NCBI GenBank assembly: GCA_963924565.1
Contig: OZ004612.1
Coordinates: 7,068,001-7,132,000 of the forward strand
From: Ascidiella aspersa
Lineage: Eukaryota
Length of the DNA: 64,000 bases
Direction: 5' to 3'
Every line of letters begins with the position of its first letter. The first letter of the stretch is position 1. A program made the position numbers and the translations under genes. The notes under the pieces were generated by a model. It was not told where the DNA came from. It worked only from the letters and a program-made list of their open reading frames with translations, and ran no database searches. Below are positions 23,201-63,401 of the stretch, one piece after another.

Positions 23201-26200
23201 TAAAAAAGTTGAAAGGAATTGGGTCACCAAATATTCGCTGTTAGCTACCCTTGGCATTTAGGCAGGGAGTCTAACCGGAACCGAAGTGGAACTTTATGAA
23301 CCGGTTTTGGGTCAATTTTTTTCGAACCGTAACCGAACCTGTACCGTTTTTTAAACGACTTTAAGTAGCCGAAGCGGAACTGAACCAAATAATTTGAACG
23401 AACATGAACTTTAAACGAACCCGAACCTGAGCGGTTTGCTCCAGCATGACGTCACAACTTGTATTTTAAAGACTCAAATTATGCCATGTTTAAAATTTTA
23501 TAAACAAATTTGAATATTGATTAAAAAACGTTGATTTTTTTATTTTTAGATATTTAAATAATGAGTTGCTGTTTTCTTAATACGTCACATAACTTTAACT
23601 GAATGACTTACTATTCATAGATTATTCTCTACATTTGTTGACCTACATTTTTAGATTTAACGCAACTTATATTATATCCGAACCGAAACTTTATCAACCG
23701 GTTTTGAAATAACGATGGTCGAACCGGAGCTCAACAGGAACTTTTAAATTGCTCCGAATCGAAACCGAAACTTAACCATATTCCGAAAAAATCCTTGAAC
23801 CCGAACCGAACCTGAACCGGAAAAGGCAAACGGTTCGACTCCCTGTATTTAGGTCGTCGCAAAAATCTAACAAGAAAAAAAGTAATCCCATCGAAAAGGA
23901 ATGGTAGCCCATAATAAAATATATTTTATGCACAGGCTATGATAAACGAATTTACGCTGTTGGGCATTTAGATATTGACTTAGCTGAAACAGATTGGTTT
24001 GGCGACTTCAAGGTTTAGACTTTCTTGCAAATCGTAATTTGAATCGCCCGCAACTTGATTCAGTAATTACTCATTATGCTTCAGGGTAAGTAGATCAGTT
24101 TGTGTAAAAACAAACAAATTGATAAACTTTTTAAAGGTTCACTTTTAGTTTTCGCTTTTTAACCAATACTGATCTAACGCTGAACTTACCGAATTTAGAG
24201 CAGATGTCGTTTTGAGAATCATCGCTTTTCATGCGATAAAATGTTGCTGTAAATAAAAAGGTTGATTTAATATGATTTAAGTTTGCTAGATTTTGTGTAG
24301 TTGGATTTTAAATAAACAGGACATAGGCCTGTACACATAAATGATGTAACAATTTGTTGCATTTATATTATGCAATACGCTAACTTATACTTTAAATTCA
24401 TCTTATTGTTCTAAACTTTGATCTAAATGCTTTTCAATATACTAGAGCCGTCGTCGCAATAGATAATAAAAAAAAAATGTTTTTAACTTATTACACTGGT
24501 GGGTTAAAAATTACACTTACCATTGAAGTAACACACAAAAGGGTTTGCTTTGTCCTCGATGTTGTCCCACTTAGTTGAATTTTTCATCATAATGACATAT
24601 TTTTGATCTTGAAGATCAGACGGCTGACTTGAATGCCAACTGTCGTGATATGTAACGCTGCTTTCATCCGTCCAACGATAAGAAATATTTTGACCTATAT
24701 TTTCTTTAGCGCTCGCGCCTGCGAAGTGCAAATTTATAAGAACAAAATTCAATTTTTAATTAAATACTCCGCCAAACCATTATATAATTTGTAGCAGGAC
24801 AATAAGGACCTGGTATGACGTTGTAATGGCAAATACAGTATGGTGGTGGTATTTTGTTTTACAATAAGGTCTTAAAACCAAGTTACCAAAGTCGAAGAGG
24901 TTCAAAATTGGTCAGGGTGAACATTATTGGAGTTTAAATCAAACAAAAATGAAGAAAAATTTAGTGTCGACAATGTTTTTTTTTTAAATAAGTAAACGCC
25001 TACAAAAAGTACAACAGCCTCGAAGTTATTGCAGCTGTAGGACACGGTCTTGAATATAAATTGTGGTAAACCAGTCGTTTAATAATGTGGTCATAAGTGG
25101 TTCATATTGGGCACGAATGCTTTAATCTATTCTAATTGATTTTCTCATTCAATATTGAGCAATACCCGAAAAGCTAACACAAACAATGCAGCACAAAAAC
25201 AAACCACTATAGTTTTGTTAGAATTACCGCCTGATTTGTTAAAAAATATATTCAAAGTAAAACATTTCTAAAAAAACTGTGACTTTTAGATTGGCTACTC
25301 GTCCATTGAGATCATTACAAAATTGAGTCGCCGACTGCACTAGTTCTCGTGATTAAATTTATTGGAAGTGGTTTTAAACCTATAGGTAAGATTTTCACAA
25401 AATTGATAAAAATTGCGGAAGTAATGCGAATAAATGGCTCATATTAATGAAATTGTAAATCATGGCTGCTATTGTCTTGTTTGTGATGATTTCCTTGATT
25501 ATTAACAATCTACTTAAGAAAGTTGATTTGACAAAATTTCGCTATTATATACTTTAAGTTTGGTGTTTGGGTTGCCGCCTAAAATGTTAATAAACACTGT
25601 TTAAGCAAAATAAAGCCGTTTTAACACCACTTCTGTATATTGAAAATTTGTTCACCTGAGTAGTCATTTATTTGTGACCACAAACTTTCTTACCTATCCA
25701 CATGTCGAAATTGTGTTGTTTACGGATGCAGTCAACGAGTGCGTTTTCGTTTTCGTCTTCGATTTTAGCTAGTTGGCCTGCTTTGTTAGAGCATTCCTTT
25801 CGGGCTTCCGAAAATGTTTTTTGATTTTTTTTCTTTTTCCCGAAAAGTCCATATATCTTTACTCTAGTGCCATCTAGAATGAAAAAAAATATCAAATTCA
25901 AATCCTATACCCTTTGTCGTTCCTATACTGAGAATCGATTCTGCAAAAGCACATCCCAAAAACAAATTATGTCCAATTTAAGATTCAGTATTATTTTCTG
26001 TATTGGAGTACAAAAGTACAAAATAAAAATTATTGGTGTGGATAACATACCTGTTAGTCCCAGTTTGCTTGCGATACCCAGGTCTTTAAAGCAATATTCA
26101 TATACACTTCGACGATCAGTACCATTTAAACCTATAAACATACATTGCTTTATTCGCAAAAAAGTCTGGTCTCGTCCCAACAGGTTTACGAGGGGTAAAA

Positions 26201-26605
26201 TCATTTACGGGAGCAAAAAATAAGAACTAATTCTACTTTTCTTACAATTAGCTCTGAGAAAGCATTCCTCAATTTTATTCAGTGATTTGTTATAAGAAGG
26301 CCTTAACAATTCAAAAAACAACTTTCGCGTGCTCTTTATACTTTACGTTTTGCGACCGGTTTTTAGCACCGTAGAAAGTAGTTATAACATCACAATTGCA
26401 AAAAAAGTTTTACCGTTTAAAAAGTTTTCTTCACACCTTGAATCCATTTTGTTCCGTTGTACAACTTACCTCTCACCCGCACTTTTTCGTTCACTTCGAT
26501 GACCATTCTTTGCCTGAAAGCTGTTAGTTGGTTAGACGACAGATGAGAAAACAAGCAAAAGACGACAAAAGAAAACTGCCGCAATCCTTTCCGAAAACCA
26601 GCCAT
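17230..26605 (-). CDS. Adhesion GPCR copy 2 (type-B CTLD + GAIN/GPS + 7TM + tail), ~1046 aa, apparently intact
   Basis: Exons 26470-26605, 25694-25873, 24521-24718, 24190-24246, 22680-~22957, 21534-21806, 19793-20024, 18824-19321, 17230-18518. Phases 1,1,1,1,0,0,1,1; total 3141 nt, in frame. CTLD WIG/WTD motifs, GPS H-A-T-IFAVML, WMLVEG, CWL, LPALGIPW, NGLQGFF. Confidence 0.88.
23263..23845. mobile_element. Same-site copy of the GAACC-rich hAT MITE in intron 4 of copy 2
   Basis: Same TIRs and CATTTAGG/TATTTAGG flanks as 10553-11143. Confidence 0.85.
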
Positions 26606-29700: not shown

Positions 29701-32700
29701 TCACTTGCTATACTTAGAAGTCTTTATATTCTGCTGCCCTCCGTTTAGTGTTTTGCTTACGTTATCCGTCTTTCTTCCATCAGGCAGCCCTTTGATTTGG
29801 GCTATTTTTCTTTCGTTAGCATTTCTGTTTTCGTTAGCCATCCTGTTTTCTAGGATCATCTTGCTGATGTTAGCCATCTTGATTTCGTGAGTCCTCTTGC
29901 TTTGTTGAAGGTCACTCTTGCTTTTCTGAGATGTGGTGATTTTTTGAGTCACCTTGTTTTCCAGAAGTGTTTTTTCATCGTTCAACACTTTTCTGTCGCC
30001 ATTCTTCTTTTTTTCAAAGGCCACCAGGCTTTTCTGGGACATAATTCTGTCGTGGGCCATATCGTTTTGCTTGTCCTTCTTACTTCCATAAGCCGTCTGG
30101 CTTTCTTGGACAATCTTCCTTGTATGGGCCATCTTGCTTTCCTGAGTAATTGTTCCTCCTTCGATTATTCTGTTTCGCCGGGGACCACTATTGTCTTCCT
30201 GAGATGCAGTTCTTTTCCGAGTCATCTTGTTTCCGTGAAACCTCTTTACTTGGTCAGTCATTTTGCTCTTGTGAGCCATCTGAGTTTTCTGGTTGTCGTG
30301 AGTCACATCTTCTTTCTGGTCATGCTGGTTTTCGTAGGACATCTTGCTTTCTTGTACAATCTTGTTTATGTGAGCCATCTTGCTTTCGTGGCTCATTTTT
30401 CTTTCGTGTGACTCCGTGGTTTCGCAAGACACTTTTCGTTTGTTTACCATCCTGCTGTCGTGAGCCATTTTCCTTTCGTGCGACATATTACTTTTGTCAG
30501 CACTTTGAATTTCTTGAACTGCCTTGCTCACGTGAGCCTTATTACCTCCGTGAACTTTTTCGCTTCTCTGAAATGTTTTTCTCTTTTCCGCCATCTTAAT
30601 TTCTTTGACTGTCTTGCTTCCGTGAGCCGTCTGTCTTTTGTCAGAAACTTTTCGTACGTGAGCCGTTGTACTTCCGCGAGACATCTCGTTTTGCTGGTCA
30701 ATCTTACTTGCATAAGCCTTTCTGCTTTCGTGAGCCATCTTTCTTATATGATCCATATTGCTTTCCGACGATGCCTTGCTTTCCGTAACCATGTTGTTTT
30801 CCTTGGTAGACTTTGAACCGACGCTTTCTTTTGCCTTTCTATTTGACCTTGTAAATCGAAGTCGGTCAACAATCGCGTGCCGGACCTCACTGTTAAACAC
30901 CGCGTAGACCAGAAGCAAAAAGAATCCTTGCAGTCCGTTCACCACAGTCGAAAGATAAATAAACACGTTGGACGTTCCTAGAAAAATGACGTTGGGCACT
31001 GTTACTTAATTTTAAGGCAATTTACCGCTTCCTTATCGAATACTAGTGTGCTAAAATAAACAAGGAAAATAATGCATTGCATGGTATTATTGAACGACCA
31101 ACCATAAAAATACGACAAATGTAATTCAAGGTTGAAAATTACCTTGAGGACACCAAGTAAGCAACCGTGTAAACTATAGATATCGGGTCCGAAAGGCTTA
31201 ACTAGATGCGAGGACAACCTTAAAATAAATGCTTTAAACAGACCAATCTAGTTCAAATCTAGGCCTATAGCGCGAAATTTACCAGCAAGGAAGAGTAGAG
31301 CCCACGGAATTCCAAGCGCAGGAAGCAGCATAAGCATGGCTCGGAGTCCTGCTTTGACGTGGATCAGGTTGTTTCCCACCAGTGGATTGTTGTCCTCGCT
31401 ACGTTGGGGCATCGGCCTTAGCTTTTCCTCGGCTTTGCTCATTGCGTAGACAAAGCAACTGACTTTGAGCAAGATGGCAAGATTTACGATTGCAATGGCA
31501 GCGAGGGGAATTATGACGCCGACCAGAAGGATTCCCGAATGTCGACTTAGCCAGCATTGAGCGTAATTGGCCGTTATATTCGGTTTAAAAGCCACCAGCG
31601 GTTCGTCCATGTAGATGTCGTTGAAGAAACCGTAAACTGTTGTTGCGATCACCGCTGCAGAGGGAAAGAGCCAACCGGATGCAAGAAGGCCGATCCTTAC
31701 GCTTCTGGAGGAGCCGAGACGAAGAGCGAAGTCGGAAGTTTTTAGGAAGATGTTCACGCCCTCCACCAACATCCAGGCTCCTTAAGAGACGAGGTAAATT
31801 AGCAACATTTGTTAATGGTACATTTTACGGTTTAAATGTGGTTTTCCACGCCTGACAAATGTTTAGTTTTTACCATACGTAACAACTTATACTTACTGTA
31901 AATAGTTTAACTGAATATTAGTAATCTATAAAGTTCATTTTATCTAAAGCTATGAGGTAAAACTAATTCAAATAATAAAATGGAAGGCCCATAAATTAGA
32001 TACGAAACAAACGTTTAAAAAAGCGCAAAACGGAGCAGTTATTAAACAAACTATTTATTCTGCAATATGCTATGTTCAACATAATGAAATTTACTAAACT
32101 TTAAAGTTAAATTCAATTTATTTAAAAATTGCCAAATGATTTCAGGTAAAAAAACTTGCGTTACAGCCACAATTCCCCGATTCAACTGTCTGGGCGAATG
32201 GTTGTTAATTTCAACATTTGCGTTATGTTCTAAATTGAGGTTTTCCTTCACCTGAACTCAGCATTGCGAAATGCTGCGCGACCGCCAACACCTGACAAGC
32301 AAGTTGGTCGTCCAAGGCAAAGTCTTGAACCAAGTTGCCCAAATGCAGCAGCAATAGGCAAGCGGCCAGATGTATCTGCACAACGGTTCGGCCGCTTTTG
32401 ACCTTTCGTTTGGCCCCTAGCAAAGCGATGATCGTCAGTACGAGTGAGAAAGAAGAAACGCAGCCGGTGACGTAACCGAGAATCTGTGTACAGCAAAAAA
32501 TTAGAAACAAGCAACTAATGGTCAACTCGCTCCTTTTGTGGTTGATCCACGCCAGTTCATTTCAATCAGAGGCATTTTAAGGTAAGCGGGGATTCGTTTG
32601 GCAGACAAAAAATCTAAAAATTCATGAAAACCCCAAACCGCCATTTACATGCCTTATGCATATCACATGACAAAATTCAGTGCTATAAAGTTTTGTAAAA

Positions 32701-35700
32701 CTCTTTACATTTTAAGGTTTTAAACCTGGGTCACTCAAAACGCGAAGGAACATGCCCGGGAACCCTTAAAATGGCGTAAAAATATAGACAAATTAAAATG
32801 GCGTACTATTACTATCAATTGCGATTTGTGTTATGCCGAAGCAGGCGGATATACGTTGGTCACTACGTCATTCCCTGTGGTGCCAATCTTGTAAACCAGC
32901 CAATGTTCTTTTATTTCTTTTAACTGAGGCGTCAAACATTCTCGCTTCGTTTATTAAATCCAGCCTTATAGTGTTGGCGTATATGCTACCGAGATGTTTA
33001 CATGTTTCGTCATATGCCATGCTGCTGTTTTTTTATTACTATAACCTTTGTCGGACCGCCGTGACGAATTCGAACGCAGTAACGAAATCTTATTCTAAAT
33101 TAGGCGATTTGCACAACCAAACAGACTACAGCCATACCTTATTGGCAAAGCTGACGGCCACGTTTTAAACTTAAAATCGTTGCCAAAGTATACGCTATTA
33201 TGATTCGATGTAATTCTTGTTATTTTTTAAATTACTTATCGAATAAATCCAAATGCTCGTGTTTGCCATGAAAATCAAAACTTACAGACAATTAGAGTAA
33301 ATAATAACGGTAAGTGTTGGAATGCATATCCATTGCGATAAATGCGTTTATCCCAATGTAAAATTTTATTTCCGTAGTATAACAATATTGTCTCAAAGAT
33401 GCCCAAAACTGTGTTACTGCTCCAATTCGATGTATAAAAAACAATAAAGACTAGAATTTTTCTTGGCTAGAATTTTAGGGCTCTATAAATAGTAAGGATA
33501 TTAATACTATACAATAATAATAAAGCGAATTGTTGCCACATGTTAGAAAATGTCACTTTAACCAAGTGGTGGACCATGGCGTAGGATATTGATGGGGTCA
33601 ATTGCTTTAGGAATGACTTAACTTTTTCACGTGACGTCATAAAGCACCTAACCTTTAAATAACATTTTGTTGTCCAGCGAATTCAATATTTTTCGAAAAT
33701 AACAGCATTTGTAGTCTAATTTAGTATGAACTTCAGTGGTTATGAATTTATACCAGGTAACATGACATATAAGTATAACATCTTTGGGCTGAATTGATAA
33801 CGGACAAAAGCGAAGTAAAAATGAATAGAAACTTAATATTTTGTCACAGTTTATAATAACATAATAAAAGGTTAAATAGTTTGAAAAGGATGCAAGGCTT
33901 TTTGCTTCCCTGTGTCCTCCCTTGCATATGTCATTTAGGCATTACTCGGGTATCAGTTTTACCTTAGCTGGATATGGTATGACGACAGCTTCCACGGTTA
34001 GCATGACAGCAAAGATGGTGGCGTGGTTCGAAGCGCAGGCGACTTTTCCCTGCTCTATCCCGACCAGCGTCATTCCATTAGCCTCAAAATCTCCCGTACT
34101 GGTGTTGTAGAACACGCAGCGAAGTTTGGCACTTCGCAGAATTAAGGTTCCACTAGTGTTGCTTCTGTAGCTTTTCACCGAGTAGATTGACCTGATTATG
34201 TCAGTCATGTTGCTGGTCCGAACTTCGTAGCTTAACTTAAAGGGTAAATGTTAAGTCACAACATTGCTTGACAACGGCAATTTTAACGTAGCGTATAGCT
34301 TTATTATCGTAAGATAAAAATTACATGCAAGCCTAAACTCACGAATTGCCCTACTTCGGTCACATAAACCTAAGTGAAAATCGATCTTCATGGTCTAATA
34401 TAGTTGACTTAAGTATACTGTAGTTAAATATGCACCAGTGTTCATGGGTGTAACATAATCTAAATATATATAATATACAATCTACAAAAATAAGACACAG
34501 ACATTACATAAAACGTTTTAGAATAGAAAACGTGGAATTTTCGTTTTCTTAACTTTTTATTATTAGGATTTTGTTACGCATCATTCATAGTGGAGTAAAA
34601 AAAATTATCATGGAATGGTAAATCATTAGTGCACTTAAGTGATTTAAATTAAGTGCACGTAAGTTACTGATTTTAACTTATTAACCTAAGTCTTTTGGGC
34701 AAAATCACTTAAACTCTTTCGGACAAATAAGTTTACTTTGCTTAAGTGTTTCGTTTATGTTTGTTTCAATTTATTTAGTTTTATTGCAATATCTGTTAGT
34801 AAAACTGCTTGATATAGTTATATATCACGTTTTGTTGTTCGCTATTTAAAACAACTCTCCAGATCGGACAAGTTTAACAAATATAATAGTTTAACATTTT
34901 ATGTATATTGATGTAAATGACTTGACTTGGACTCAAAATGACTTGGACTAACTTGACTTCATGTGTTAAATTATTCATAATTTACTTTTTTTTACGAATG
35001 ATTGAAGTAAGACCTAAAAATGACTGGCTTACAATACAGTAAACATTGAAAAATTGCAGCAAAAATACGCTTACTGTAACATTCCCCAATTTTTTCGCGG
35101 GTGTAACTCCCATTAGGGTTCCCATCATAAAGTTGCCCAAAATGGTTCCCTGTTCCTTTAAAGATTTGTTGGCACCCCATTGGTTGACCGGTGGGTAAAA
35201 ATTGATTAATTCCATTCCAACTGCCTCGGGTGTAATAAATGACGTCAGAGATACGTCATCGAACTGGTAGCTAGTCGAGTTTCCAGGCTCGTGCATGACG
35301 TATTCTACTTTTAGGTCGTTTTGTGAACAAGGCTTGCCTACTTTGGCAAAAGGAGAGTAGTTTATTCAAGTATCAAAACAAGATTATTTTAGTAGAAAAA
35401 TTTATTATTTAATAAAACGTAGAACAAGCACAACAAGCTTTACTAAATGGTTTCTTTCCTTGGGAAGAAACACAAAAAAAAATACATACAGATACAGCTT
35501 ACAGACGTAACACTGCACTCACCCAATTTAAAGCAGATGTCGTTATAAGAATCGTCGCCGACGATATGGAAAAATGTCGCTGTCAATAAAATGCACAAAG
35601 CAATTTGTTAACTTAACGTCGCTCGCCCCACATATTCGATTGAACCCTCTATCAAAAACTGTTGGACAACCCTGACTTTAACCAAAGCTGTTAAAACACA

Positions 35701-38700
35701 TGTGACTGTATAATCAGGCAATTCGATTATATCGTTAAAAATATGTACATTGTTAGACTATCTTCGATTATATTTAAAAAAATGCCGTCCAACTGAAAAC
35801 TGAAGACAAAAATATTAAGCAATATTAAACATCAAGACTAACAGGTTGGCGAAAACGTTAATGAAGACCTTACTAAAAAGTTTAAATTTACTGTGTTGCG
35901 CTAAGTGCTGTGCTTCGAATCGTGCATATTGCATTTATTTTATTTCACCGTTTGTCTTTTATAAACGGGTGTTATGGTTGCACCATTCTTTTGTCAGTTT
36001 ACATGTTGTATCTGCGAAATAACCTTACTGAATTTTATATTTGGAGTCAGCACCGACGACTTAAATGCTTACCTTTGTAGAAACATACATAATTTTTCAT
36101 CCCGTCTACTGCGTTATTCCACTTGTTTTTTTGCCATATGTGGACGTACAGTTCGTTTCGACGATCATCAGGTTGACCGCCTGACCAAAACTCCGTTGAT
36201 TTTGATACTTCGCTCCCATCAGTCCAATAATACGAACCTATTTCATCTAGAGGCGTGCTATTTTTGGCCTTTGCTCCTGGAAAAATTTAGTTAAAAATCA
36301 AATAATGTTTTTAAATAGTGTTTTTAATATATTGTTTATTTTCAGCAAAACCTTAATTTGGCGTATAATTAAGTAAACCTGCATAAAAAGCTGACTAATG
36401 GTATTTTTTTTTTATATATATTTTAGACAGGGTTGCGTTGTTTATAATTTGTCAGGGGAATATTTTGAGGAGTTAGTATTCCATGCGTGGTTTCTCAGCG
36501 TTAGTCGGCGTTAAAAATAGGTTTATTAACAAGGTTAAATTTTCGATAATTTATATTTAAATTTGGTTTGTTGGTTTAGGCTATTCCCTGACTAGCTTTG
36601 GCAAGCAAAACACATATTGGCCTTATATTTCCCACTTTTACCTATATTATGACTTATCTAATACTAAGAGGTTATGTTTGCCAAAAGATACTTTTTCAAT
36701 GGCGGTATTTCTGTAATCACTGTGCAATTTATTTTTTTTAATTTAGATTTGCAATTTTTTGAGTTTTATTTTGACCGAATTATAATTAATAGCCGATTCT
36801 TTCCTTAATTTTCAACAAAAATCAAAAATATGCATGCATCGACGGCCCCGTTAATTTCGGCTCTCCCCCATAATACGAAACTTTAGAAAGGCATTTCTAC
36901 TACATATAGTCGGCTTGATTCGTCCGCCACGCGCCGGACGGCTAACATTAATAGAGAAAAGACGTTTTATCCCTTACTAGTATTTGTGCCGTGCTTTGTA
37001 GCCGAGTGTTTATTCGATTCCTAAACAGGGTTGGAAATAGAATAATTTTTTTATCGAATCGATAAAAAATATCTTACAGATACACATCGGATATGTCGAC
37101 ACACAAATTACGTCATAACAGAGCGTCAAAAACAGACGTTCCAAAACTTTACCAAAAATTTTGCGTGAAATACCCGTTGCAATTATTTTATATTTCGCGG
37201 CCCTGCAAAAATTCAAGGGTCAGTTGACCCATGTTTCTTGTAGAACACTAGTGAAGTAACGATTATTTGTAACTAAGGTTGCAACTTTGTAACTAATGGG
37301 TACAATTCGCTAATAGCAGATAGTACAGCATAGATGCTTTATGATGTCACAATAGACATCATAAAACACGATATATCGTTGAATAATAAAGCTTAAATTA
37401 AGACAATAATGGTAACAGACAATTGTTAAAACATAGACTAATGTTCAAAAACATTCGCTATAGCCTAATGTTGAAAAACATAAAGACCAATTCTCCTTGC
37501 AGACCCCTGAAACTGCTGTACTGACCCAGTTTGGGAACAAGAAATAGCTTTATGAAAACTGAGGTTATCGCCGTAATAAACTAATATGCTAAACTAAAAC
37601 CCTAGCTTAAAGGCTTTAAGGAGGTTGTAGGCTGGCCTGGTGAAAAAGGACCAGGCCTGGTAAAAATGGAACACTTTTCTACCAACACGATATATCTAAA
37701 AATGTAGTTTACCGTAAAGCCGTCTCGGGAGTAGTGTAATTGTTTTGCCATTGAAACGAATCACAATTAACATAATGATTTTCGGGTGCTTTTTGGGGAT
37801 TGGGTTGATTCTCACGTTGGGTCAACCTCATTTTTGTCTGTTACTTGGCCATAAATTTGATACATTCTGAAATTCTTTTACGGTTTACATTTTTGTCTTC
37901 AAATGGTGACTGGTTCTAATGCGTTCGATTCCGTAATACCACGATAACCACGCGCCTTTCACTGTATTATGTTTGCTTATACACCGAGTCAACAGTGCCG
38001 TTATCATATGGACAACATCTTTAGAAGGTTTTACAGTGGCCACTTTTCACGCGATATGTCACGGTTTTCGTTACGCGAAAGATGTGTGGCGTGATTAGCT
38101 CGAATCTACAACAAATTTGTTGTTACAACGAAATATACAATAGTGATAAACAGTCAACGGCCTCATGGATTTTTAGATTTGATTTAACCATTGGGAAATC
38201 AGCTAGGATTTGCCAATTTATGAAGGCTATTGCAGAGGTTATTATTTAGTATGCCCGGGAAGCGCTAGTAATCCGGCAAGAGTTGCTTATTAAAACTCCT
38301 AATATGGTCAACGCCGGGTATTTCGTCTTATAGGTTTCTTATATCGACATATGTTGTATAGTTTTTTATCCATAAACAAAAAAATAAATTATTACACTTC
38401 AACAAAATAAACTAAAGAAAGAATTTAATTAAATATCTAAATAACTTAAGTCCAAGTTGAATTACTCATCTAAATGAGAGTCAAGTAATTCTGCCTAAAA
38501 GAGGATGGTCAATTATTTTTAAAAACAGTGACTTTGCTTAAGATTCGCTTCATTACAACACCGCTTTATGTTGACTATTTGTTGACATTTATGTTAAGCC
38601 CAAATCTTCTTACCGATCCATAGTTCATCATTTGGGTTGTACTCAGCCATGCAACTCACAAGTTCATTTTCTTGTTCGTTTTCGATTTTTGCCAATTGCC

Positions 38701-41700
38701 CGTTGTTTTTCATAGCGCATTGATTTTGGGCTTCCTCGAAATCTTTCTTATCTCGAAAAACTATGTAAAGCTTTACGACTGCTCCGTCTAAAAACAAAAA
38801 AACACGTTTAAATTACAGTTACGATCTTGCCTACTCAGACGTTATTATATAAATGTGTATTGGAGTTTTTCGGAATTTATTGTGGACAGATATTTATACT
38901 TTAAACCAGGGGTCGGCAACCTTTTTTGCACTGCGGACCGGTTTAAAACTAAAATTTTGTCGCGGACCGGCCTTAAAAAACAACAAATGTTCAGAAAAGT
39001 AAATTTATTGCAACTTTTAATGCGAAATTTATGCTTGTTTTGCCGCAAAGAGGTGCTCCCATCTAAGAATTATTGAACTTACTGAAACCCGCGGGCGGCA
39101 TCCGGCCAGCCAAACAATTTAGTTTATTCCGCAGACCGCGGCCCATTTCAATAAAACTTTTAGGCCTTCACGTTTTTTCTTAAATTAGACTTGTATATAC
39201 CATTATTGCCAATTCCTATATTCTTATCAGCTTGTCAATATAAGGATATTTAAAGCATTCTTTCAAACGAAGTCACACTTTTGTATATCATGTAATAATG
39301 TATAATCCCATTTTTGACCAGGCCCTTCAAGACACTTTTGATAGTTAGCCTACGTAATATAAAAAAAATAATAATGGAAAAAGTAGGAAACACAGACCGA
39401 CACCTGAAAAGTACAGTATAGACCTACGTATAAGGCTTGCCAGAACGATGTCAGAAAAAAAAGGCTTGTGACTTTTTTGTCATTTTTATAGAGCAGGGGT
39501 CGGCAACCTACGTCCCGCGGGCCGGATCCGGCCCACCTAAGTAATTCATCCGGCCCGTCGCCTCTTTGACAAACTAGACACGAGTCTATACTATTTTAAC
39601 TACGTTAATGCGATAAATTTTCGCGCTTTGCGCGAATGATCTCAAAAACCGGTAAGTTTACATTTTGATACTGTCTTTTAAATAGATCAGCGCTTTACCG
39701 TTGCGGCGTGGAAGGCTGGCAAGTGCGCCGCGGTCAAACGGAAAACGAAATTTTTTGACATATATTTTATTATTTTTGGCAGTGTAATAAATTCTTGCGA
39801 AAAATTTCAAAGAAACACCGGTATAACAAAAAAAAACGCGCTCGTTTCGCTCGCCACGTACGCCCAGACTTAAAAATTTAGCAAATACTGATAGATTAAC
39901 CAATAAAGTTATCGCGTTTTTCAAAGTAGTTTTATTACACTTTTCATTAATAGTATTCATGAACAAGTGTGGACTCGAATCTTACATCAAACAAACTCTT
40001 TTTTTCTCGCTTTGTGCCAACACATTTTTGTCTCCTTAAATGTAATTAAACACATCTTGAAGTGCAAAGCAAATCCGAAAACCACCTGATTAAAAGTTGT
40101 TCTAACATTTTAATCACACATTTCTTAGTTAACTTTTTGTGCGGCCCGCAGAGACCTTTCTGAGTTTGGTTTTGGCCCGCGACTAGAAAAAGGTTGCCGA
40201 CCCCTGTTATAGAGTCTACATTACAACTATAGAGGCTAAAACTAATTAATATACATACGTTTTCTCGAAAACTTTCCTGCTTAAATATCAAAATAATAAA
40301 TTATTTCAATATGGGGCATTAGTTTATGAACATTTTTTGCATGAAATTCTGTTGTACTTTAAGGTGAGCACGCTTAAAATTAAATCACATGATATTTTAG
40401 CCAATTTTTCGTTATATTCTAAGTACTAGAAGTAGATTTTGTAATAAAAATTTGCATTATGGATGTTGTCAACGTTCTATGTACCGCATATGGCCAGGAC
40501 ACACTAGTTGTTTTGTACCTCACGAGAGCTTACTACTAATTTGGATTTTTTATCATACCAAACAACCATGGACTTATAGTCTATATTAGAACGAAGTTAA
40601 ATGTGTTTTAAATACTTTTTTAGGTTTTATGTACTGTTCGTGTTTAAACAAAATTTTAATCTGACAACCCTGCTACGGACCGGTAGCCAACTCCTCGCGG
40701 ACCAATACCGGTCCGCGGACCGGCATTTGCCGACCATTGCTTTAAATGATTGCTATGCATAGATTCTTTGTTAAATGAAATTCCCAAATAAAATATGAAT
40801 ATATCATACCTTGAAGTTGCTCTGGGTTGTTTTCGTAGTTGTTCGTAAAACACAATTCATATCGTGTTAAGGATTCAACTTCGAAGGTTGTACCTTTACA
40901 TAATGTTTTTGTTTGTATGTTTTCAGAAGTTACTTTAAAAGGTGGCCAAGTATGGCGAAAAAATAAGCATGGCCTCATTGCGCATTGTACACGTTTGCCA
41001 TTTTTTCGTGTTCCGAAATACATTTTAATCATAGAATATTAAACACTGTTTTCGAATTTGAGCTTTTATGCAAATTGTATGCAAAATGTGTCTTCTGATG
41101 TTTAATGTTATATGGAGAACATTAAAAACCTTTAGAGATTTAGGTGAAAAGTTACTCTTTTTTTTACACAATAAGAGAAGCTAATGTATAGAATATTTTC
41201 CGCATTTGACGTATTTTAAAATAAAACACTCTCTTTTTTTCTTCAGCTGCATTGAATATATTTTAGTTGTCGTTTTATTCATTTTTTTGTTGGTGTGCTG
41301 CCACAAATGTTACTTCCTGTTAGTATGCTGCCGGTTAAAAAGTTGTGCTTGGTTCCCAATCATATAGGTAAAGGCAGCCAATTTTACAGTTTCGTTTCAA
41401 ATAACAAGGGATAATTTAATTTAAACTGTGTTATTACCCTGGCTATTTAGTAACCAGTAAACCAGTATTAAACTAAAAAGCGTTTCAAACCTATAAACTA
41501 TGACATTCGATTTGAAATGCGTATAGCCACGGTGCAAATCTTTCTAAATTATTAAAAATAACGTCATCCTTCTGAAGACATATTTCTTTCTTGCAAACGG
41601 TTCTAATTGGTTAAACTTGCTGATACCCTTGCCTAATCATTAAGTGTCCGACAAATGCTGTTCGGCGAGCAACTAGTGTGCAATGCCAGGTGCAACGGTT

Positions 41701-42742
41701 TCGCAATTTCCTTTAAAAACGTGCAGTTGCAAAAAAAGGTTCCATCGTAAAAAGCGTAAAGCAGTGGTCGGCAAACTGAGGGCCGCGGAGCAATTTTTAG
41801 TGGGCCGCTTGATAGTCGTACAATCCTACATTAACTACTCTTGATTTTAAAATTGGTGTTGAATAGAATTTTTAAATTGGCTCAGCTTGGAAAGGCCCGT
41901 GTGCCAAAAGTGGTCCTGAGGGCCAACTATATTTTTTGCCAACTTAAACTGTATGTAATTCATTTTTTTTCGCCCCCATGACAGTCTTTTGGGAACCAAG
42001 CGCCGTGTTATATTTCATCTTAATATCAAATGGTTTTACGTGGGCCTTCAACAGCCCGGAAAAGAGTACTTTGGGCCGCAACAAAAAACGTTTGCCGACC
42101 ACTGGCATAAAGTATGCTACAGGGTTATTCAAGGTCATTTTTAGGCCAACATTCAGCGGTTCATGCCCACCTTTTTGCCAAGTAGGCTTATAGTAACGCA
42201 TTAATAAATGGAAAATCGAGAAATCAGCTCGACGAATGTAGTAACTTCGCTTGACTCAGTACAAAACAAAGTCGAATATAAAAAATAACCAGCCGGCGTC
42301 GAAGAACAAGATTTGTAATGACTAACTAAGTTAATTTAAATTAAAATGTCTTATTTGTACAATTTAAAAGTAAGTGCAGTTATTCGTTAGATTAATGTCT
42401 GTATTTGATAATAACGTGAAGAAGTAAAACAAGGAAATACGTTAAACACAATGCTTCGTATATTTTTAAGCAGGGGGCCACGATGGTTAAGAACCTTCCA
42501 AAGGGGGCCACGAAGCATAAAAGGTTGAGAACCACTGTTCAAGGCGATCGGTTTAAAAACGTTAAGGATTTTACCAATATTTTACACATAAGAGTGTGAA
42601 AACGTTTGCCTGAAGTATACCGACCTTTCACTTGAACTTTCCCGTTTTCTTCGATGACCACTGCTGCTTTCTTGGCTAACACCGAAGTCAATAAACAAAC
42701 CACAGCGTAAAACGTCAACCGACTTATCCAAAAATTTGTCAT
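29701..42742 (-). CDS. Adhesion GPCR copy 3 (divergent type-C CTLD with QPD/WNN motifs + GAIN/GPS + 7TM + tail), ~1032 aa, apparently intact
   Basis: Exons 42625-42742, 38614-38787, 36073-36276, 35523-35579, 35075-35340, 33963-34235, 32252-32483, 31283-31780, 29701-30977; total 3099 nt, in frame, with the same phases as the other copies. Confidence 0.85.
35523..35579 (-). CDS. 57-nt linker exon 4 of copy 3 (ATFFHIVGDDSYNDICFKL); homologs at 11462-11518, 24190-24246, 53290-53346
   Basis: GACAG|CG acceptor and TTGG|GTGAGT donor; conserved DDSxNDIC and identical length in all copies although the flanking introns differ. Confidence 0.85.
36073..36276 (-). CDS. Exon 3 of copy 3: C-terminal half of the CTLD (not in the ORF track)
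   Basis: TTTTTCCAG|GA acceptor, AAAG|GTAAGC donor; GAKAKNSTPLDEIGSYYWTDGSEVSKSTEFWSGGQPDDRRNELYVHIWQKNKWNNAVDGMKNYVCFYK. Confidence 0.88.
38907..40739. mobile_element. Older hAT (Charlie-like) non-autonomous element in intron 1 of copy 3, hosting a nested MITE
   Basis: Left end CAGGGGTCGGCAACC; right end TTTGCCGACCATTG; flanks CTTTAAAC / CTTTAAAT (7/8); GC-rich CCGCGG/GGACC subterminal motifs. Confidence 0.55.
39494..40206. mobile_element. 713-bp hAT (Charlie-like) MITE with perfect TIR and TSD
   Basis: TIR CAGGGGTCGGCAACCT / AGGTTGCCGACCCCTG; identical 8-bp TSD TTATAGAG on both sides; subterminal GGCCCGC motifs. Confidence 0.92.
41762..42104. mobile_element. 343-bp hAT (Charlie-like) MITE
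   Basis: TIR CAGTGGTCGGCAAAC / GTTTGCCGACCACTG; flanks GCGTAAAG / GCATAAAG (7/8). Confidence 0.88.
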
Positions 42743-46328: not shown

Positions 46329-49300
46329 TCACTTGCTATACTTAGAAGTCTTTATATTCTGCTGCCCTCCGTTTAGTGTTTTGCTTACGTTACCCGTTTG
46401 ATAAACTTGCAGCCCTTTTATTTGGGCTATTTTTCTTTCGTTAGCAGTTCTGTTTTCGCTAGCCATCCTGTTTTCTAGGATCATCTTGCTGATGTTAGCC
46501 ATCTTAATTTCGTCAGTCCTCTTGCTTTGTTGAAGGTCACTCTTGCTTTTCTGAGATGTGGTGATTTTTTGAGTCACCTTGTTTTCCAGAAGTGTTTTTT
46601 CATCGTTCAACACTTTTCTGTCGCCATTCTTCTTTTTTTCAAAGGCCACCAGGCTTTTCTGGGACATAATTCTGTCGTGGGCCATATCGTTTTGCTTGTC
46701 CCTCTTACTTCCATAAGCCGTCTGGCTTTCTTGGACAATCTTCCTTGTATGGGCCATCTTGCTTTCCTGAGTAATTGTTCCTTCTTCGATTATTCTGTTT
46801 CGCCGGGAACCACTATTGTCTTCCTGAGATGCAGTTCTTTTCCGAGTCATCTTGTTTCCGTGAAACCTCTTTATTTGGTCAGTCATTTTGCTCTTGTGAG
46901 CCATCTGAGTTTTCTGGTTGTCGTGAGTCACATCTTCTTTCTGGTCATGCTGGTTTTCGTAGGACATCTTGCTTTCTTGTACAATCTTGTTTATGTGAGC
47001 CATCTTGCTTTCGTGGGCCATTTTTCTTTCGTGTGACTCCGTGGTTTCGTGAGCCACTTTTCGTTCGTGTATCATCCTGCTATCGTGCGCCATTTTCCTT
47101 TCGTGCGACATATTACTTTTGTCAGCACTTTGAATTTCTTGAACTACCTTGCTCACTTGAGCCTTATTACCTTCGTGAACTTTTTCGCTTCTCGGAGATG
47201 TTTTTCTCATTTCCGCCATCTTGATTTCTTTGACTATCTTGCTTCCGTGAGCCGTCTGTCTTTTGTCAGAAACTTTTCGTACGTGAGCCGTTGTACTTCC
47301 GCGAGACATCTCGTTTTGCTGGTCAATCTTACTTGCATAAGCCTTTCTGCTTTCGTGAGCCATCTTTCTTATATGATCCATATTGCTTTCCGACGATGCC
47401 TTGCTTTCCGTAACCATGTTGTTTTCCTTGGTAGACTTTGAACCGAATCTTTCTTTTGCCTTTCTATTTGACCTTGTAAATCGAAGTCGGTCAACAATCG
47501 CGTGCCGGACCTCACTGTTAAACACCGCGTAGACCAGAAGCAAAAAGAATCCTTGCAGTCCGTTCACCACAGTCGAAAGATAGATAAACACGTTGGACGT
47601 TCCTAAAAAAATGACGTTGGGCACTGTTACTTAATTTTAAGGCAATTTACCGCTTCCCTATCGAATACTAGTGTGCTAAAATAAACAAGGAAATTAAATG
47701 CATGCATGGTATTATTGAACGACCAACCATAAAAATACGACAAATGTAATTCAAGGTTGAAAATTACCCTGAGGACACCAAGTAAGCAACCGTGTAAACT
47801 AGATATCGGGTCCGAAAGGTTTAACTAGATGCGAGGACAACCTTAAAATAAATGCTTTAAACAGACCAATCTAGTTCAAATGTAGGCCTATAGCGCGAAA
47901 TTTACCAGCAAGGAAGAGTACAGCCCACGGAATTCCAAGCGCAGGAAGCAGCATAAGCATGGCTCGGAGTCCGGCTTTGACGTGGATCAGGTTGTTTCCC
48001 ATCAGTGGATTGTTGTCCTCGCTACGTTGGGCGACCGGCCTTAGCTTTTCCTCGGCTTTGCTCATTGCGTACACAAAGCAACTGACTTTGAGCAAGATGG
48101 CAAGATTTACGATTGCAATGGCAGCGAGGGGAATTATGACGCCGATCAGAAGGATTCCCGAATCTCGACTTAGCCAGCATTGAGCGTAATTGGCCGTTAT
48201 ATTCGGTTTAAAAGCCACCAGCGGTTCGTCCATGTAGATGTCGTTGAAGAAACCGTAAACTGTTGTTGCGATCACCGCTGCACAGGGAAAGAGCCAACCG
48301 GATGCAAGAAGGCCGAACCTTACGCTTCTGGAGGAGCCGAGACGAAGAGCGAAGTCGGAAGTTTTTAGGAAGATGTTCACGCCCTCCACCAACATCCAGG
48401 CTCCTTAAGAGACAAGGCAAATTAGCAACATTTGTTAATGGTACATTTTACGGTTTAAATGTGGTTGTCCACGCCTGACAAATGATTAGTTTTTACCATA
48501 CGTAACAACTTATACTTACTGCAAATAGTTTAACTGAATATTAGTAATCTATAAAGTTCATTTTATCTAAAGCTATGAGGTAAAACTAATTCAAATAATC
48601 AAATGGAAGACCCATAAATTAGATACCAAACCAACGTTCAAAAAAGCGCAAAACGGAGCAGTTATTAAACAACTTATTTATTCTGCAATAAGCTATGTTT
48701 AACATAATGAAATTTACTGAACATTAAAGTTAAATTCAATTTATTTAAAAATTGCCAAATGATTTCAGGTAAAAAAAACTTGCGTTACAGCCACAATTCC
48801 CCGATTCAACTGTCTGGGCGAATGGGTGTTAATTGCAACATTTGCGTTATGTTCTAAATTGAGGTTTTCCTTCACCTGAACTCAGCATTGCGAAATGCTG
48901 CGCGACCGCCAACACCTGACAAGCAAGTTGGTCGTCCAAGGCAAAGTCGTGAAGCAAGTTGCCCAAATGCAACAGCAATAGGCAAGCGGCCAGGTGTATC
49001 TGCACAACGGTTCGGCCGCTTTTGACCTTTCGTTTAGCCACAAGCAAAGCAATGATCGTCAGTACGAGTGAGAAAGAAGAAACGCAGCCGGTGACGTAAC
49101 CGAGAATCTGTGTACAGCAAAAAATTAGTAAAAAAGCAACTAATGGTCAACTCGCTCTTTTGTGGTTGATCCACGCCAGTTCATTTCAATCAGAGGCATT
49201 TTAAGGTAAGCGGGGATTCGTTTGGCAGACAAAAAATCTAAAAATTCATGAAAACCCCAAACCGCCATTTACATGCCTAATGCATATCACATGACAAAAT

Positions 49301-52300
49301 TCAGTGCTATAAAGTTTTGTAAAATTCTTTACATTTCAGTGTTTAAAACCTGGGTCACTCCAAACCCGATGAAACTGCCTGGGGCCCTTAAAATGGCATA
49401 GTAATATAGACAAATTAAAATGGCGTACTATTACTATCAATTGCGATTTGTGTTAAGCCGAAGCAGGCGGATATACGTTGGTCACTACGTCATTCCTCTG
49501 CGTTGCCAGTATTGTAAACCAGCCAATGTTCTTTTATTTCTTTTAATCGAGGCGTCAAACATTCTCGCTTCGTTTGTTAAATCCAGCCTTATAGTGTGGA
49601 CCTATATGACCGAGCTGTTTACATGTGTCGTCATATGCCATGCTTCTGTTTTCCTTTATTACTGCAACCTTTATCGGACCGCACTAACAAATTCGAGCGC
49701 GTTAACTAACAAACAATCTCCTTCTAAATTAGGCGATTTGCACAACAAAACAGACTACAGCTATACCTTATTGGCAAAGCTCCCGGCCCCGTTTTAATAT
49801 TAAAATCGTTGCCAAAGTGGCTGATCAAAATACGGTGGGTTTGAAGTTGTCCAAATGGGTTACGCTATTATGATTTGATGTAATTATTGTTATTTTGAAA
49901 TATAGGCCTACTGGTCGAATAAATCCAAATGCTCGTGTTTACCATGAAAATCAAAACTTACAGACAATTAGAGTAAATAATAACGGCAAGTGCTGTAATG
50001 CATATCCATTGCGATAAATGCGTTTAAACCAATGTAAATTTTATTTTCGCAGCATAAATAATTTATATTAAAGGTGCCCGAAACAATGTTACTGCCCCAA
50101 CTCGATGTACAAAAAACATTAAAGGCTACAATATTTCTTGGCTAGAATTTTAGGGCTCGAGATAATAAGGATATTGTTACTACAATAATATTAAAGCGAA
50201 TTGTTACCACATGTTGGAAAATGTCACTTAGACCCATGGGTGAATCATGGTAGGCTATTGAGGGGTCAACTTTTTTAGGAATGATGTAACTTTTTCACGT
50301 GACGTCATAAAGCACCTAATCTTTAAAACACATTTTCTTGTCTAGCGAATTCAATATTTTTCGAATTACAACGTTTGTAGTTTAATTTAGTATAAACTTC
50401 AGTGTTTATGAATTCACAAGTATAACATCTTTGGGCTGAATTAATAACAGACAAAAGCGAAGTAAAATGCATGGAAGCTGAGTATTTTTGTAAAAAAAGT
50501 TTACATTTACATAATAAAAGTTTATATAGATTGAAAAGGAAGCATGGTCTTATGATTTTCTGTATCCTCCCTTGCATACATGTCTCAGTACCTACACTAA
50601 GCAAAAGTGTACCTTTTCCAATCGGACACTACTCGGAGATCAGGTTTACCTTAGCTGGATACGGTATGACGACAGCTTCCACGGTTAGCATGACAGCAAA
50701 GATGGTGGCGTGGTTCGAAGCGCAGGCGACTTTTCCCTGCTCCATCCCGACCAGCGTCATTCCAGTAGCCTCAAAGTCACCCGTGCTGGTGTTGTAGAAC
50801 ACGCAGCGAAGTTTGGCACTTCGCAGAATTAAGGTTCCAGTCTCGTTGCCTTTGTAGCTTTTCACCGAGTAGATTGAGTTGATTATGTCAGTCAAGTTGC
50901 TTGTCCGAACTTCGTAACTTAACTTAAAGGGTAAATGTTAAGTCACAACATTGTTTGACAACAGCAACTTTAAAGTATAGCACGGAGTCGTACAAAAAAT
51001 TAATAAAACATATCATGCAGGACTTCGGCTTCTTTAGGAAGCATAAAGAGAAGATCGATATTCAAAGTCAAATATAGTTATTTTAAGTATAGGCCTACTG
51101 TAGTTATTTGTGTCCCAGTTGTTGATGGGAAAAACAAGATAAAAAATAATATAATGTACAAAAATAAGGCACGAACATTACAACCTTTTTTAGTGCATAA
51201 AAAAAATGAATTTTTAATTTCCCAACTATTGATTATTATGGTTTTTTTAATAGTATATCATTTTCATAAGGAGTAAAGTAAATTATAGTGGAATGGCCAA
51301 CAGGCAGTGCATTTAAGTGATCGATTTAATTTAAGTGTACGTAAGTTACTGGTTTTAATTTAATTAACTTAACCTATAAGTCTTTTGGACAAAATCGCTT
51401 AACTTTACTAAACCCTTTCGGACAAATAAATTCATTTCACATAAGCGTGTTCTTTAATAATTAATTTTTGATACAATTTATTTAGTCTTACCGCAAAGTC
51501 TGTTAGTAATTATGCTTGATAACTACATATTACGTTTTGTTATTCGCGAATTCAAACATCTTTCGGATCGGATAAGTTTACCAATTATAACAATTTACCA
51601 TTTTGTTTATACTTTTGTAAATGACATGCCCAGCCTCTACTTGCTATAAAAATTACTTAGATGAGTCTTGACTTCATGTGTTTGGTAAATGATTTGACTT
51701 TTAGTTGTTTTTCTGCAAATGATTTAACTTTCAATTAAAAATGACTGGTTTGCAACACAGTAAAAATTTACTTAAATAAAAAAAAAACCGCATACCGTAA
51801 CATTTCCCGTCAATTTTGCGGGTGTAACTCCCAGTAGGGTTCCCATCAAAAAGTTGCCTTCAAGAGTTCCGTCTTCCTTCAAAGATTTGTTGGCAACCCA
51901 TTGGTTGGTCGGTGGGGTGAAATTGATCAATTCCAGTGCCACCGCCTTTGGTGTAATAAATGACGTCAGAGCTACGTCATCGAATTGGTAAGTGGTCGAG
52001 TTTCCTGGCTCGTGCATCAGGTATTCTACTTTGGCGTCGTTTTCTGAACAAGGCTTGCCTTTGGTGTCGGTTTCTGAACAAGGCTTGTGCTTTAACAAAA
52101 TGGGTTTAGTTCCTTGTGTTTAGTAAAAGAAGATAAAATTTCGGCAACGTGGACACAAACCAATATACGTTTGATTTGGTTAAGTCACCGGGATCATCAT
52201 TTCACATTTTCGGATTTTTTGAGGTTGGTTCTAAGCACGATTTTTTTAGAATTCAAAATACTGTAGGACGGATAAAAAGACATGCTCATTTTTATTAAAT

Positions 52301-55300: not shown

Positions 55301-55702
55301 TTTACGGGAGCAAAAAATAAGAACTAATTCTACTTTTCTTACAATTAGCTCTGAGAAAGCATTCCTCTATTTTATTCAGTGATTTGTTATAAGAAGGCCT
55401 TAACAATTCAAAAAACATCTTTCGCGTGCTCTTTATACTTTGCGTTTTGCGACCGGTTTTTAGCACCGTAGAAAGTAGTTATAACATCACAATTGCAAAA
55501 AACGTTTTACCGTTTAAAAAGTTTTCTTCACACCTTGAATCCATTTTGTTCCGTTGTACAACTTACCTCTCACCCGCACTTTTTCGTTCACTTCGATAAC
55601 CATTCTTTGCCTGAAAGCTGTTAGTTGGTTAGACGCCAGATGAGAAAACAAGCAAAAGACGACAAAAGAAAACTGCCGCAATCCTTTCCGAAGACCAGCC
55701 AT
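46329..55702 (-). CDS. Adhesion GPCR copy 4 (type-B CTLD), ~1041 aa, apparently intact
   Basis: Exons 55567-55702, 54791-54970, 53620-53817, 53290-53346, 51796-~52073, 50650-50922, 48876-49107, 47906-48403, 46329-47602; total 3126 nt, in frame. Confidence 0.88.
52379..52971. mobile_element. Same-site copy of the GAACC-rich hAT MITE in intron 4 of copy 4
   Basis: Same TIRs and flanks as 10553-11143. Confidence 0.85.
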
Positions 55703-61900: not shown

Positions 61901-63401
61901 CAAATTAAAATGGCGTACTATTATTTACCAATTGCGATTTGTGTTAGGCCGAACCCGGCGGATATACGTTTCTCACCACGTCATTCCCTGTGGTGCCAAT
62001 CTTGTAAACCAGCCAATGTTCTTTTATTTCTTTTAACTGAGGCGTCAAACATTCTCGCTTCGTTTATTAAATCCAGCCTTATAGTGTGGGCGTATATGTT
62101 ACCGAGATGTTTACATGTTTCGTCATATGCCATGCTGCTGTTTTTTTATTACTATAACCTTTGTCGGACCGCCGTGACGAATTCGAACGCAGTAACGAAA
62201 TCTTATTCTAAATTAGGCGATTTGCACAACAAAACAGACTACAGCCATACCTTATTGGCAAAGCTCCCGGCCCCGTTTTAAACTTAAAATCGTTGCCAAA
62301 GTGTCTGTTAAAATTATGGTTGGTTTGAAGTTGTCCAAATGGTTTACGCTATTATGATTTGATGTAATTCTTGTTATTTTTTAAATTACTTATCGAATAA
62401 ATCCAAATGCTCGTGTTTGCCATCAAAATCAAAACTTACAGACAATTAGAGTAAATAATAACGGTAAGTGTTGTAATGCATATCTATTGCGATAAATGCG
62501 TTTAAACCAATGTAAAATTTTATTTTCGCAGAATAAATAATTTATATCAAAGATGCCCGAAACAATGTTACTGCTCCAATTCGATGTGCAAAAAACATTA
62601 AAGGCTACAATATTTCTTGGCTAGAATTTTAGGGCTCGAGATAATAAGGATATTGTTACTACAATAATATTAAAGCGAATTGTTACCACATGTTGGAAAA
62701 TGTCACTTAGACCCATGGGTGAACCATGGTAGGCTATTGAGGGGTCAACTTTTTTAGGAATGATGTAACTTTTTCACGTGACGTCTTAAAGCACCTAATC
62801 TTTAAATAACATTTTGTTGTCCAGCGAATTCAATATTTTTTGAATAACAGCGTTTGTAGTTTAATTTAGTATAAACTTCAGTGTTTATGAATTCACAAGT
62901 ATAACATCTTTGGGCTGAATTAATAACAGACAAAAGCGAAGTAAAATGCATGGAAGCTGAGTATTTTTGTAAAAAAAGTTTACATTTACATAATAAAAGT
63001 TTATATAGATTGAAAAGGAAGCATGGTCTTATGATTTTCTGTATCCTCCCGTGCATATATGTCTCAGTACTTACACTAAGCAAAAGTGCACCTGTTCCAA
63101 TCGGACACTACTCGGAGATCAGTTTTACCTTAGCTGGATACGGTATGACGACAGCTTCCACGGTTAGCATGACAGCAAAGATGGTGGCGTGGTTCGAAGC
63201 GCAGGCGACTTTTCCCTGCTCCATCCCGACCAGCGTCATTCCAGTAGCCTCAAAGTCGCCCGTACTGGTGTTGTAGAACACGCAGCGAAGTTTGGCACTT
63301 CGCAGAATTAAGGTTCCAGTCTCGTTGCCTTTGTAGCTTTTCACCGAGTAGATTGAGTTGATTATGTCAGTCATGTTGCTTGTCCGAACTTCGTAACTTA
63401 A
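58926..63401 (-). CDS. Adhesion GPCR copy 5, 3' part (exons 6-9); 5' exons lie beyond the window; tail shortened by a premature stop
   Basis: Exons 63129-63401 (GPS), 61368-61599, 60400-60897, 58926-60094. AGA>TGA at 58926-58928; the stop used by the paralogs is still present at 58818-58820. Confidence 0.82.

Follow-up and report, generated by a model that had tools for sequence, protein, structure and literature searches.

Adhesion GPCR copies with near-identical 7TM exons in an ascidian tandem array carry three divergent CTLD heads, with Ca2+ site 2 differing between type C and types A and B

Adhesion GPCRs that bear a CTLD are already known, both from amphioxus (PMC2246102) and among ascidian proteins in the databases. 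The amphioxus receptors carry Lectin C-type domains and resemble the locus studied here in that an invertebrate chordate joins a CTLD to a GPS-7TM receptor; we liken them by description only, and that description gives neither a site-2 analysis nor a tandem array. Ascidian adhesion GPCRs termed 'unclassified' (Clavelina, Phallusia and Styela; P0003, P0005, P0008, P0050, P0057, P0075 and P0076) also resemble the present genes, having a GPS and a secretin-like 7TM and, in some cases, one N-terminal CTLD. As far as the Ciona survey describes them (PMC2396169), its 24 unclassified receptors include no CTLD, and the closest pair is at most 89% identical. The locus described here is distinguished from the ascidian unclassified receptors by its ten copies, near-identical 7TM, three divergent heads, lack of a Ser/Thr stalk and very short GAIN domain, and our search of the open-access literature found no description of an ascidian tandem array of CTLD adhesion GPCRs. 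Eight of the 10 best long relatives that we looked up are named ascidian proteins (Clavelina, Phallusia, Styela or Ciona), and Lectin_C was matched in 4 of the 36 long relatives scanned, all four ascidian. The best relatives share 33-41% identity in exon 8, the top value being 41% among 84 representatives. No database copy of the spliced protein was found: the exon 8 search gave 0 matches, and alignment of exon 3 returned 7 unrelated CTLD proteins.

For the binding site itself, CTL1 of Endo180/MRC2 (PDB 5AO5; PMC4635314) shares with one head type of the array, type C, the QPD, the downstream Glu and an Asn at the position of the WND Asp, and it holds a metal at site 2 through Gln326, Asp328, Glu333 and Asn348. 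It differs in having Gln rather than Asn after the Trp (aligned with the array family, it reads QPD..E..W-Q-N), in keeping both disulfides and in belonging to a multi-CTLD endocytic receptor. Human CLEC18A/B/C (PMC7893028, PMC11103991) are like the array in being near-identical paralogs in which QPD is constant and WND has become WNN in one member. That member is CLEC18C, whose QPD/WNN state is covered in both reports and for which the authors suggest, rather than measure, weaker binding (PMC7893028). However, the CLEC18 paralogs are secreted CAP-CTLD proteins with single-residue differences, whereas the heads of the array types differ at 33-55% of residues and WNN is their family's common state. 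Canonical galactose-type CRDs (QPD with WND) share with type C the QPD and the Glu at canonical spacing. Type C lacks their WND Asp, their inner disulfide and the Trp two residues past QPD. This Trp has a role in high galactose selectivity.

We analysed a window of 64,000 nucleotides (C6:7,068,001-7,132,000, where C6 is the contig carrying it and k denotes thousand positions); coordinates without a contig are positions in this window. The window lies within a tandem array of 10 adhesion GPCR gene copies on C6, comprising 4 of type A, 3 of type B and 3 of type C in the order C, A, A, B, C, A, B, C, B, A. The genes have 9 exons that encode a predicted signal peptide, a CTLD, a short GAIN/GPS region, a 7TM and a long tail. 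In copy 3 (type C), nine GT-AG exons give an open model of 1032 aa, in which a hydrophobic leader is followed by the CTLD (residues ~40-163), by ~200 residues closing with the GPS, by a secretin-like 7TM and by a long charged tail. Pfam Lectin_C, GPS and 7tm_2 were matched in that order along the gene model. The features are as follows.

728..845, minus strand: exon 1 of the next type C copy to the left, from the gene model
5686..14096, minus strand: copy 1 (type A) gene, with a net +1 frameshift near 6200 in exon 8; the model ends at 661 aa
11985..12185, minus strand: copy 1 (type A) exon 3, CQPS..Q-K-C..WDN, with an extra Cys before QP and the Cys after WDN lost
17230..26605, minus strand: copy 2 (type B) gene, open model of 1059 aa
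24521..24718, minus strand: copy 2 (type B) exon 3, SQPS..Q-K-Y..WDN, inner cysteines absent
29701..30977, minus strand: copy 3 exon 9, last helix (by a profile of relatives) and a cytoplasmic tail of ~390 residues, charged and internally repetitive, to the stop
31283..31780, minus strand: copy 3 exon 8, middle and later 7TM helices (Pfam 7tm_2, E 2.2e-11)
32252..32483, minus strand: copy 3 exon 7, first 7TM helices (Pfam 7tm_2, E 1.7e-7)
33963..34235, minus strand: copy 3 exon 6, GPS region with a His-Ala-Thr triad and Stachel-like TIFAVML (Pfam GPS, E 2.3e-6, above the cut-off)
35075..35340, minus strand: copy 3 exon 5, putative first part of the short GAIN domain; alone it has no Pfam match
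35523..35579, minus strand: copy 3 exon 4, a 19-residue linker with one Cys, 74-76% identical to A/B though the flanking introns are unalignable
36073..36276, minus strand: copy 3 (type C) exon 3, encoding the C-terminal CTLD half; its Ca2+ site-2 positions are Q, D, E, N and N, and Tyr and Asp stand in place of the inner-disulfide cysteines
38614..38787, minus strand: copy 3 exon 2, encoding the N-terminal CTLD half with the helix 1 Cys, helix 2 and WIG
42625..42742, minus strand: copy 3 exon 1, ATG and a hydrophobic predicted signal peptide with a hydropathy peak at residues 12-30
46329..55702, minus strand: copy 4 (type B) gene, open model of 1054 aa
53620..53817, minus strand: copy 4 (type B) exon 3, from the motif and the gene model
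58926..64000, minus strand: copy 5 (type A), represented by exons 6-9, with the CTLD exons just past the window edge at C6:7,134-7,136k

Models are open through the 7TM in 8 of the 10 copies, with tails shortened in 3 of those 8. The 7TM is broken in the other two, which are frameshifted copies among the four of type A; the apparent +1 frameshift in exon 8 of copy 1 recurs in a second type A copy at C6 ~7,019-7,027k, and such receptors would lack their last helices. The frameshifts together with the shortened tails indicate that part of the array is decaying. One pair of 29-kb blocks is 99.86% identical, and some copies may be assembly duplicates. Open reading frames in intron 1 of types A and B (13369-13692 and 25923-26204) were considered as exons and ruled out, as exon 1 sits upstream and splices in frame. 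A plus-strand frame of 109 aa that overlaps exon 3 (35965-36294) was taken as a shadow frame. Elsewhere in the genes, Lys, Glu, His, Met and Ser abound in the exon 9 tail (29701-30977 and equivalents), which repeats internally at a spacing of ~246 bases and whose ends vary; its dN/dS is near 1. Exon 5 of types A and B begins with a short duplication (10286-10200 and equivalents) that yields two KPCS repeats, compared with one in type C, and changes the number of ectodomain cysteines. Introns at about 23050-24360 and 38750-40710 contain high-copy repeats whose contig depth exceeds 20,000 in the public run X1.

An initial annotation had proposed 36073-36276 as an exon overlooked by the open reading frame track and had read a difference in sugar-site motifs between the paralogs. 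This interval matches the exon to the base (204 nt), with the acceptor ttttccag before it and the donor gtaagc after it, and the exon is in phase 1 at both ends and in frame with exons 2 and 4. The four motifs occur as quoted, all on the minus strand: GQPDDRRNEL..KWNN in copy 3 (QPD codons at 36175-36167, WNN at 36121-36113), CQPSSDPDQK..KWDN in copy 1 and SQPSDLQDQK..KWDN in copies 2 and 4. The pattern [QE]P[DNS]..W[ND][ND] was found 4 times in the six frames of the window, compared with a mean of 0.017 (maximum 1) in 60 shuffles. That the track missed the exon is plausible, because its open frame is only 79 aa from stop to stop. Pfam Lectin_C matched exon 2 with an E value of 2.6e-6 and exon 3 with 0.0076, the latter alone below the curated cut-off; the two exons, 2.3 kb apart with exon 2 upstream, carry consecutive halves of the profile (positions 2-44 and 53-105, respectively). 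A profile of the array family matched 139 PDB sequences, and among the 60 listed all are CTLD proteins by name. Cys63 and Cys162 are present and would form the outer disulfide, and the WIG spans the joint of exons 2 and 3.

We infer the splicing of exon 3 from the conservation of its frame and splice sites. In RNA run X4 (~6% of one run, tissue unknown), the bins with exon 3 and with exons 6-9 received no read and splice joints were absent, which is weak evidence; 284 of the 286 placed reads fitted only partly, and nearly all reads placed on the window fell in the high-copy intron repeats. With blocks that are 98-99.9% identical and no spliced reads in this sample, the array could be partly an assembly artefact or the exon could be unspliced, in which case the 'types' would be alleles or silent relics. 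Contig depth in X1 (about 110-130 for C-specific, 180-210 for B-specific and 250-420 for shared sequence) likewise shows no obvious fit to 3:3:10, although it is a poor measure. We nevertheless regard this explanation as very improbable. Conservation of the splice sites, phases and frame extends over all 10 copies to diverged neighbours, X1 contains both B- and C-specific DNA, and introns 1-4 of type C are unalignable with those of A and B, unlike alleles. Exon 3 is also present in contigs of X1 (35475-37054, 5 other letters; this run may be the window's own source) and of a second public run, X3 (36062-36252, 0 other letters).

The five site-2 positions were assigned by alignment to DC-SIGNR and CD23. 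They read Q, D, E, N and N in type C and Q, S, Q, D and N in types A and B. Type C thus has QPD, a Glu at canonical spacing and an Asn after the Trp, which are 4 of the 5 canonical ligands, whereas A and B have QPS and a Gln. The Glu-to-Gln change at the third ligand and the loss of the inner disulfide were both absent from the initial annotation. WND is absent, being WNN in C and WDN in A and B, and EPN is absent from all 10 array copies and present in 3 neighbours. The inner Cys pair is kept in none of the 10 array copies, compared with all 14 parsed neighbours. In type A a new Cys directly precedes QP and the first inner Cys is retained, whereas B and C have neither; a replacement disulfide in type A, pairing Cys138 with Cys148, is a guess. 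The prediction for the exon 3 half-domain (pLDDT 51, pTM 0.30) is too poor for the geometry of Ca2+ site 2.

Exon 3 matches on 604 kb of C6 numbered 25, namely the 10 array copies and 15 neighbours, one of which could not be parsed; a very divergent copy, D, was missed by the profile. Copy D (C6 6,984-6,992k) is sister to the array, being 82% identical in exon 8, and has a CTLD second half without any site-2 motif and a short tail. Of the 14 parsed neighbouring CTLDs, 4 have QPD-E-NN and 8 have Asn at the last position. Three of the 4 with QPD-E-NN fall in the array's sister clade on the GPS-7TM tree (99/94). Based on this motif sharing, from which we read polarity because the CTLD tree leaves deep branches unresolved, type C most likely keeps the family state and A and B have derived sites that are eroded or remodelled. 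Other site-2 variants were noted nearby. CTLDs at C6 6,733k, 6,774k, 6,777k and 6,791k have Cys at the first and third Ca2+ ligand positions (CP..C-x-C), with a disulfide possibly replacing the Ca2+ bridge, and an inverted recent pair of CTLD adhesion GPCRs at C6 6,952-6,959k and 6,971-6,979k reads EPN..WNN and EPS..WND.

On these residues, type C likely holds a metal ion at site 2, as its counterpart in Endo180 does, and the Ca2+-dependent sugar site has likely been lost in A and B because an acidic residue stands at only one of the five positions. The A and B loops do contain spare Asp residues that could stand in for the lost Glu. The motifs alone cannot tell which sugars, if any, the heads bind. 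Type C could nonetheless be a Ca2+-dependent galactose-type lectin head, and A and B lectin heads of other sugar specificity. Its four canonical ligands fit this explanation, as do the retention of QPD-E-NN in several lineages of the cluster and the EPN/QPD rule, described as largely valid for human lectins with exceptions (PMC4681411). A clam lectin with QPS and WND, MmCTL5, weakly binds several sugars with Ca2+ (PMC12842671). The same report, where it treats molluscs, calls the rule simplified, lists QPS variants and finds that motifs predict mollusc lectin specificity poorly. The WNN state, for which weaker binding was suggested in CLEC18C, the missing inner disulfide and the single acidic residue in A and B also speak against it. 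Further, Endo180 CTL1, with QPD, Glu and the last Asn, holds a metal and lies outside the sugar-binding domains in the published account (PMC4635314), carbohydrate binding apparently being confined to CTL2 (PMC4635314; PMC7949135). This precedent makes galactose binding by type C doubtful, and its sugar binding would be at most weak or atypical. We therefore consider the galactose-type explanation unlikely. The initial annotation had called type C close to canonical, which is not supported as a predictor of galactose binding given the loss of the WND Asp, the replacement of both inner-disulfide cysteines (Cys to Tyr and Cys to Asp) and the Endo180 case. Its suggestion that the paralogs differ in ligand or Ca2+ dependence stands in part: the exon is real CTLD coding sequence and the types very likely differ in one or the other, but a sugar 'switch' does not follow. 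Types A and B have neither the mannose-type EPN nor any canonical set, and QPD..E..WNN is also found in 4 neighbouring genes outside the array. That A and B lost or remodelled the site is more likely than a change from galactose to another sugar.

The divergence of the heads contrasts with that of the signalling half. In the CTLD exons the types are on average 0.15-0.29 apart in DNA distance, whereas in the 7TM exons the mean is 0.022-0.031, similar to the distance within types (0.015-0.027). Introns 1-4 of C cannot be aligned with A and B, but identity is 96-98% in introns 7 and 8. The CTLD tree puts each type on one side of a branch, while B and C are not clades on the 7TM tree (AU p 0.019 and 0.0495, respectively, marginal for C). 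Between A and B, 64-67 of 378 bases differ in the CTLD exons (17%), compared with 6.3-7.3% in introns 1-3 and 1-3% in intron 4. The contrast with introns 1-3 has a Fisher p of about 1e-8 to 1e-10, for what amounts to a single independent test, since the 12 pairs are almost copies of one another. Four-fold sites in the A and B CTLDs are also raised (6 of 25-27 differ). Divergent exons that stand as islands among homogenised introns are the expectation for conversion opposed by selection.

An alternative is that the heads bind nothing specific, the site is eroding under relaxed constraint and the motif differences are neutral. It would account for the loss of the inner disulfide, for the frameshifted and truncated copies, for the absence of the motifs from copy D, the next relative, and for the lack of RNA support in the X4 sample. 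Between the A and B heads, dN is 0.19 and dS 0.20, and relaxed constraint also yields such a dN/dS of about 1, a ratio that the tail shares; this runs counter to a reading of selection. The corresponding ratios are 0.10-0.33 in the GAIN and 7TM. No test for positive selection as dN>dS was significant, the CTLD ratio being about 1 and not above. Differences within types were all non-synonymous in the A and B pairs tested (9/9 and 3/3, not significant), and 4 of 11 were synonymous in the C pair tested (dN/dS 0.43). However, both CTLD exons exceed 2.5-fold the divergence of the introns that flank them on either side and of the one that separates them, a pattern that neutral decay does not produce. 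In addition, the 20 CTLD exons of the 10 models contain no stop or frameshift, and dN/dS is 0.30-0.52 between the A or B heads and those of C. Relaxed decay is thus improbable in our view, more so than a galactose-type head.

Taken together, we favour as the probable explanation that in the array a nearly uniform GAIN-7TM body carries three kinds of sensor head (A, B and C), with conversion homogenising the 3′ half, selection keeping the heads distinct by ligand, C holding a metal and A and B having lost the Ca2+-sugar site. Unequal crossing-over and gene conversion would repeatedly homogenise the 3′ half, and selection would hold the head exons apart since the heads bind different ligands. 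The type C head would retain the QPD..E..WNN site of the family, with a metal likely at site 2. The A and B heads may bind through another surface, possibly to a non-sugar ligand. As the signalling halves are near-identical and the three heads very different, the copies likely sense different ligands. A relay from head to 7TM through the GAIN domain and Stachel is established for the adhesion GPCR family. Here, as in other adhesion GPCRs, ligand or pull on the head would act through the short GAIN domain and the Stachel-like peptide on the 7TM.

The putative GAIN domain of these receptors is very short. The ~200 residues that separate the CTLD from TM1 in type C leave ~25 beyond a subdomain B, and on that account the helical subdomain A, which comprises 2-6 helices in vertebrates (PMC13197933), looks absent, unless the gene models miss an exon. 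For structure prediction, we folded the single GAIN exon of a sister-clade gene, which type C matches over 111 residues at 31%. The model has a pLDDT of 64.5, and its six best Foldseek matches are GAIN structures (E 1.6e-3 to 2.3e-2). It aligned with CELSR1 (Z 9.5, rmsd 3.3, 140 aligned) and BAI3 (Z 9.2, rmsd 3.5, 137 aligned), although an unrelated axonemal chain tied at Z 9.7, and the ranges covered in GAIN structures are those of the C-terminal beta-sandwich (Z 8-9.5), which favours a GAIN fold but does not settle it. At the GPS, the triad H-A-T and the Stachel-like TIFAVML compare with a consensus of H-L/I-S/T and TxFxxLM (PMC13197933). We are unsure of cleavage because the triad has Ala for Leu/Ile and only 2 of the 4 cysteines are present.

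The array sits inside a larger cluster: across 604 kb of C6, 25 exons encode a second CTLD half and more than 25 frames bear a GPS. At about 6,727-6,737k of this contig there is an apparent chimera whose head is 92-96% identical to that of the 6,789k gene, on the 7TM of the 6,719k clade. Another, at 6,901-6,908k, joins a body of the 6,789k clade to a head that is 75-92% identical to the head of the 6,719k gene. A third candidate (CTLD at C6:6,880k) was dropped, since other exons intervene. Heads thus apparently move between deeply different signalling bodies, with breakpoints near a Ser/Thr stalk. Genome-wide, receptor exon 8 has 79 matches, with several clusters on C6, C2, C8 and C1, a large expansion of adhesion GPCRs. 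CTLD exons are also clustered in very large number on contig C2, at about 5.6-7.55 Mb, and this cluster makes up the majority of the at least 150 Lectin_C matches listed. We do not assign it to the same receptor family, as the 80 kb sampled had CTLDs (EPN/QPK/EES with WID/WVD) and no GPS or 7TM match. More tentatively, the whole C6 cluster may be a recombination-driven ascidian receptor repertoire, in which heads are kept apart by selection and swapped among signalling bodies, by conversion in the array and as chimeras between deep clades. In the array, the head would then rest directly on a GAIN reduced to subdomain B.

The motif difference alone is ordinary because EPN/QPD/WND variants are common among invertebrate lectin paralogs. 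What is noteworthy is its setting, in which orphan adhesion GPCRs with a near-constant signalling half keep three heads distinct despite conversion, a natural head-swap experiment. One reporter body joined to heads A, B and C could reveal what ascidian adhesion GPCRs sense. Such a system also bears on whether Ca2+ and sugar are still bound by a WNN site that lacks the inner disulfide, and on whether GAIN cleavage and signalling persist when the helical subdomain is small or missing. If the more tentative repertoire reading is true, the cluster would be a minimal modular adhesion GPCR system that discriminates self, non-self or microbial surfaces.
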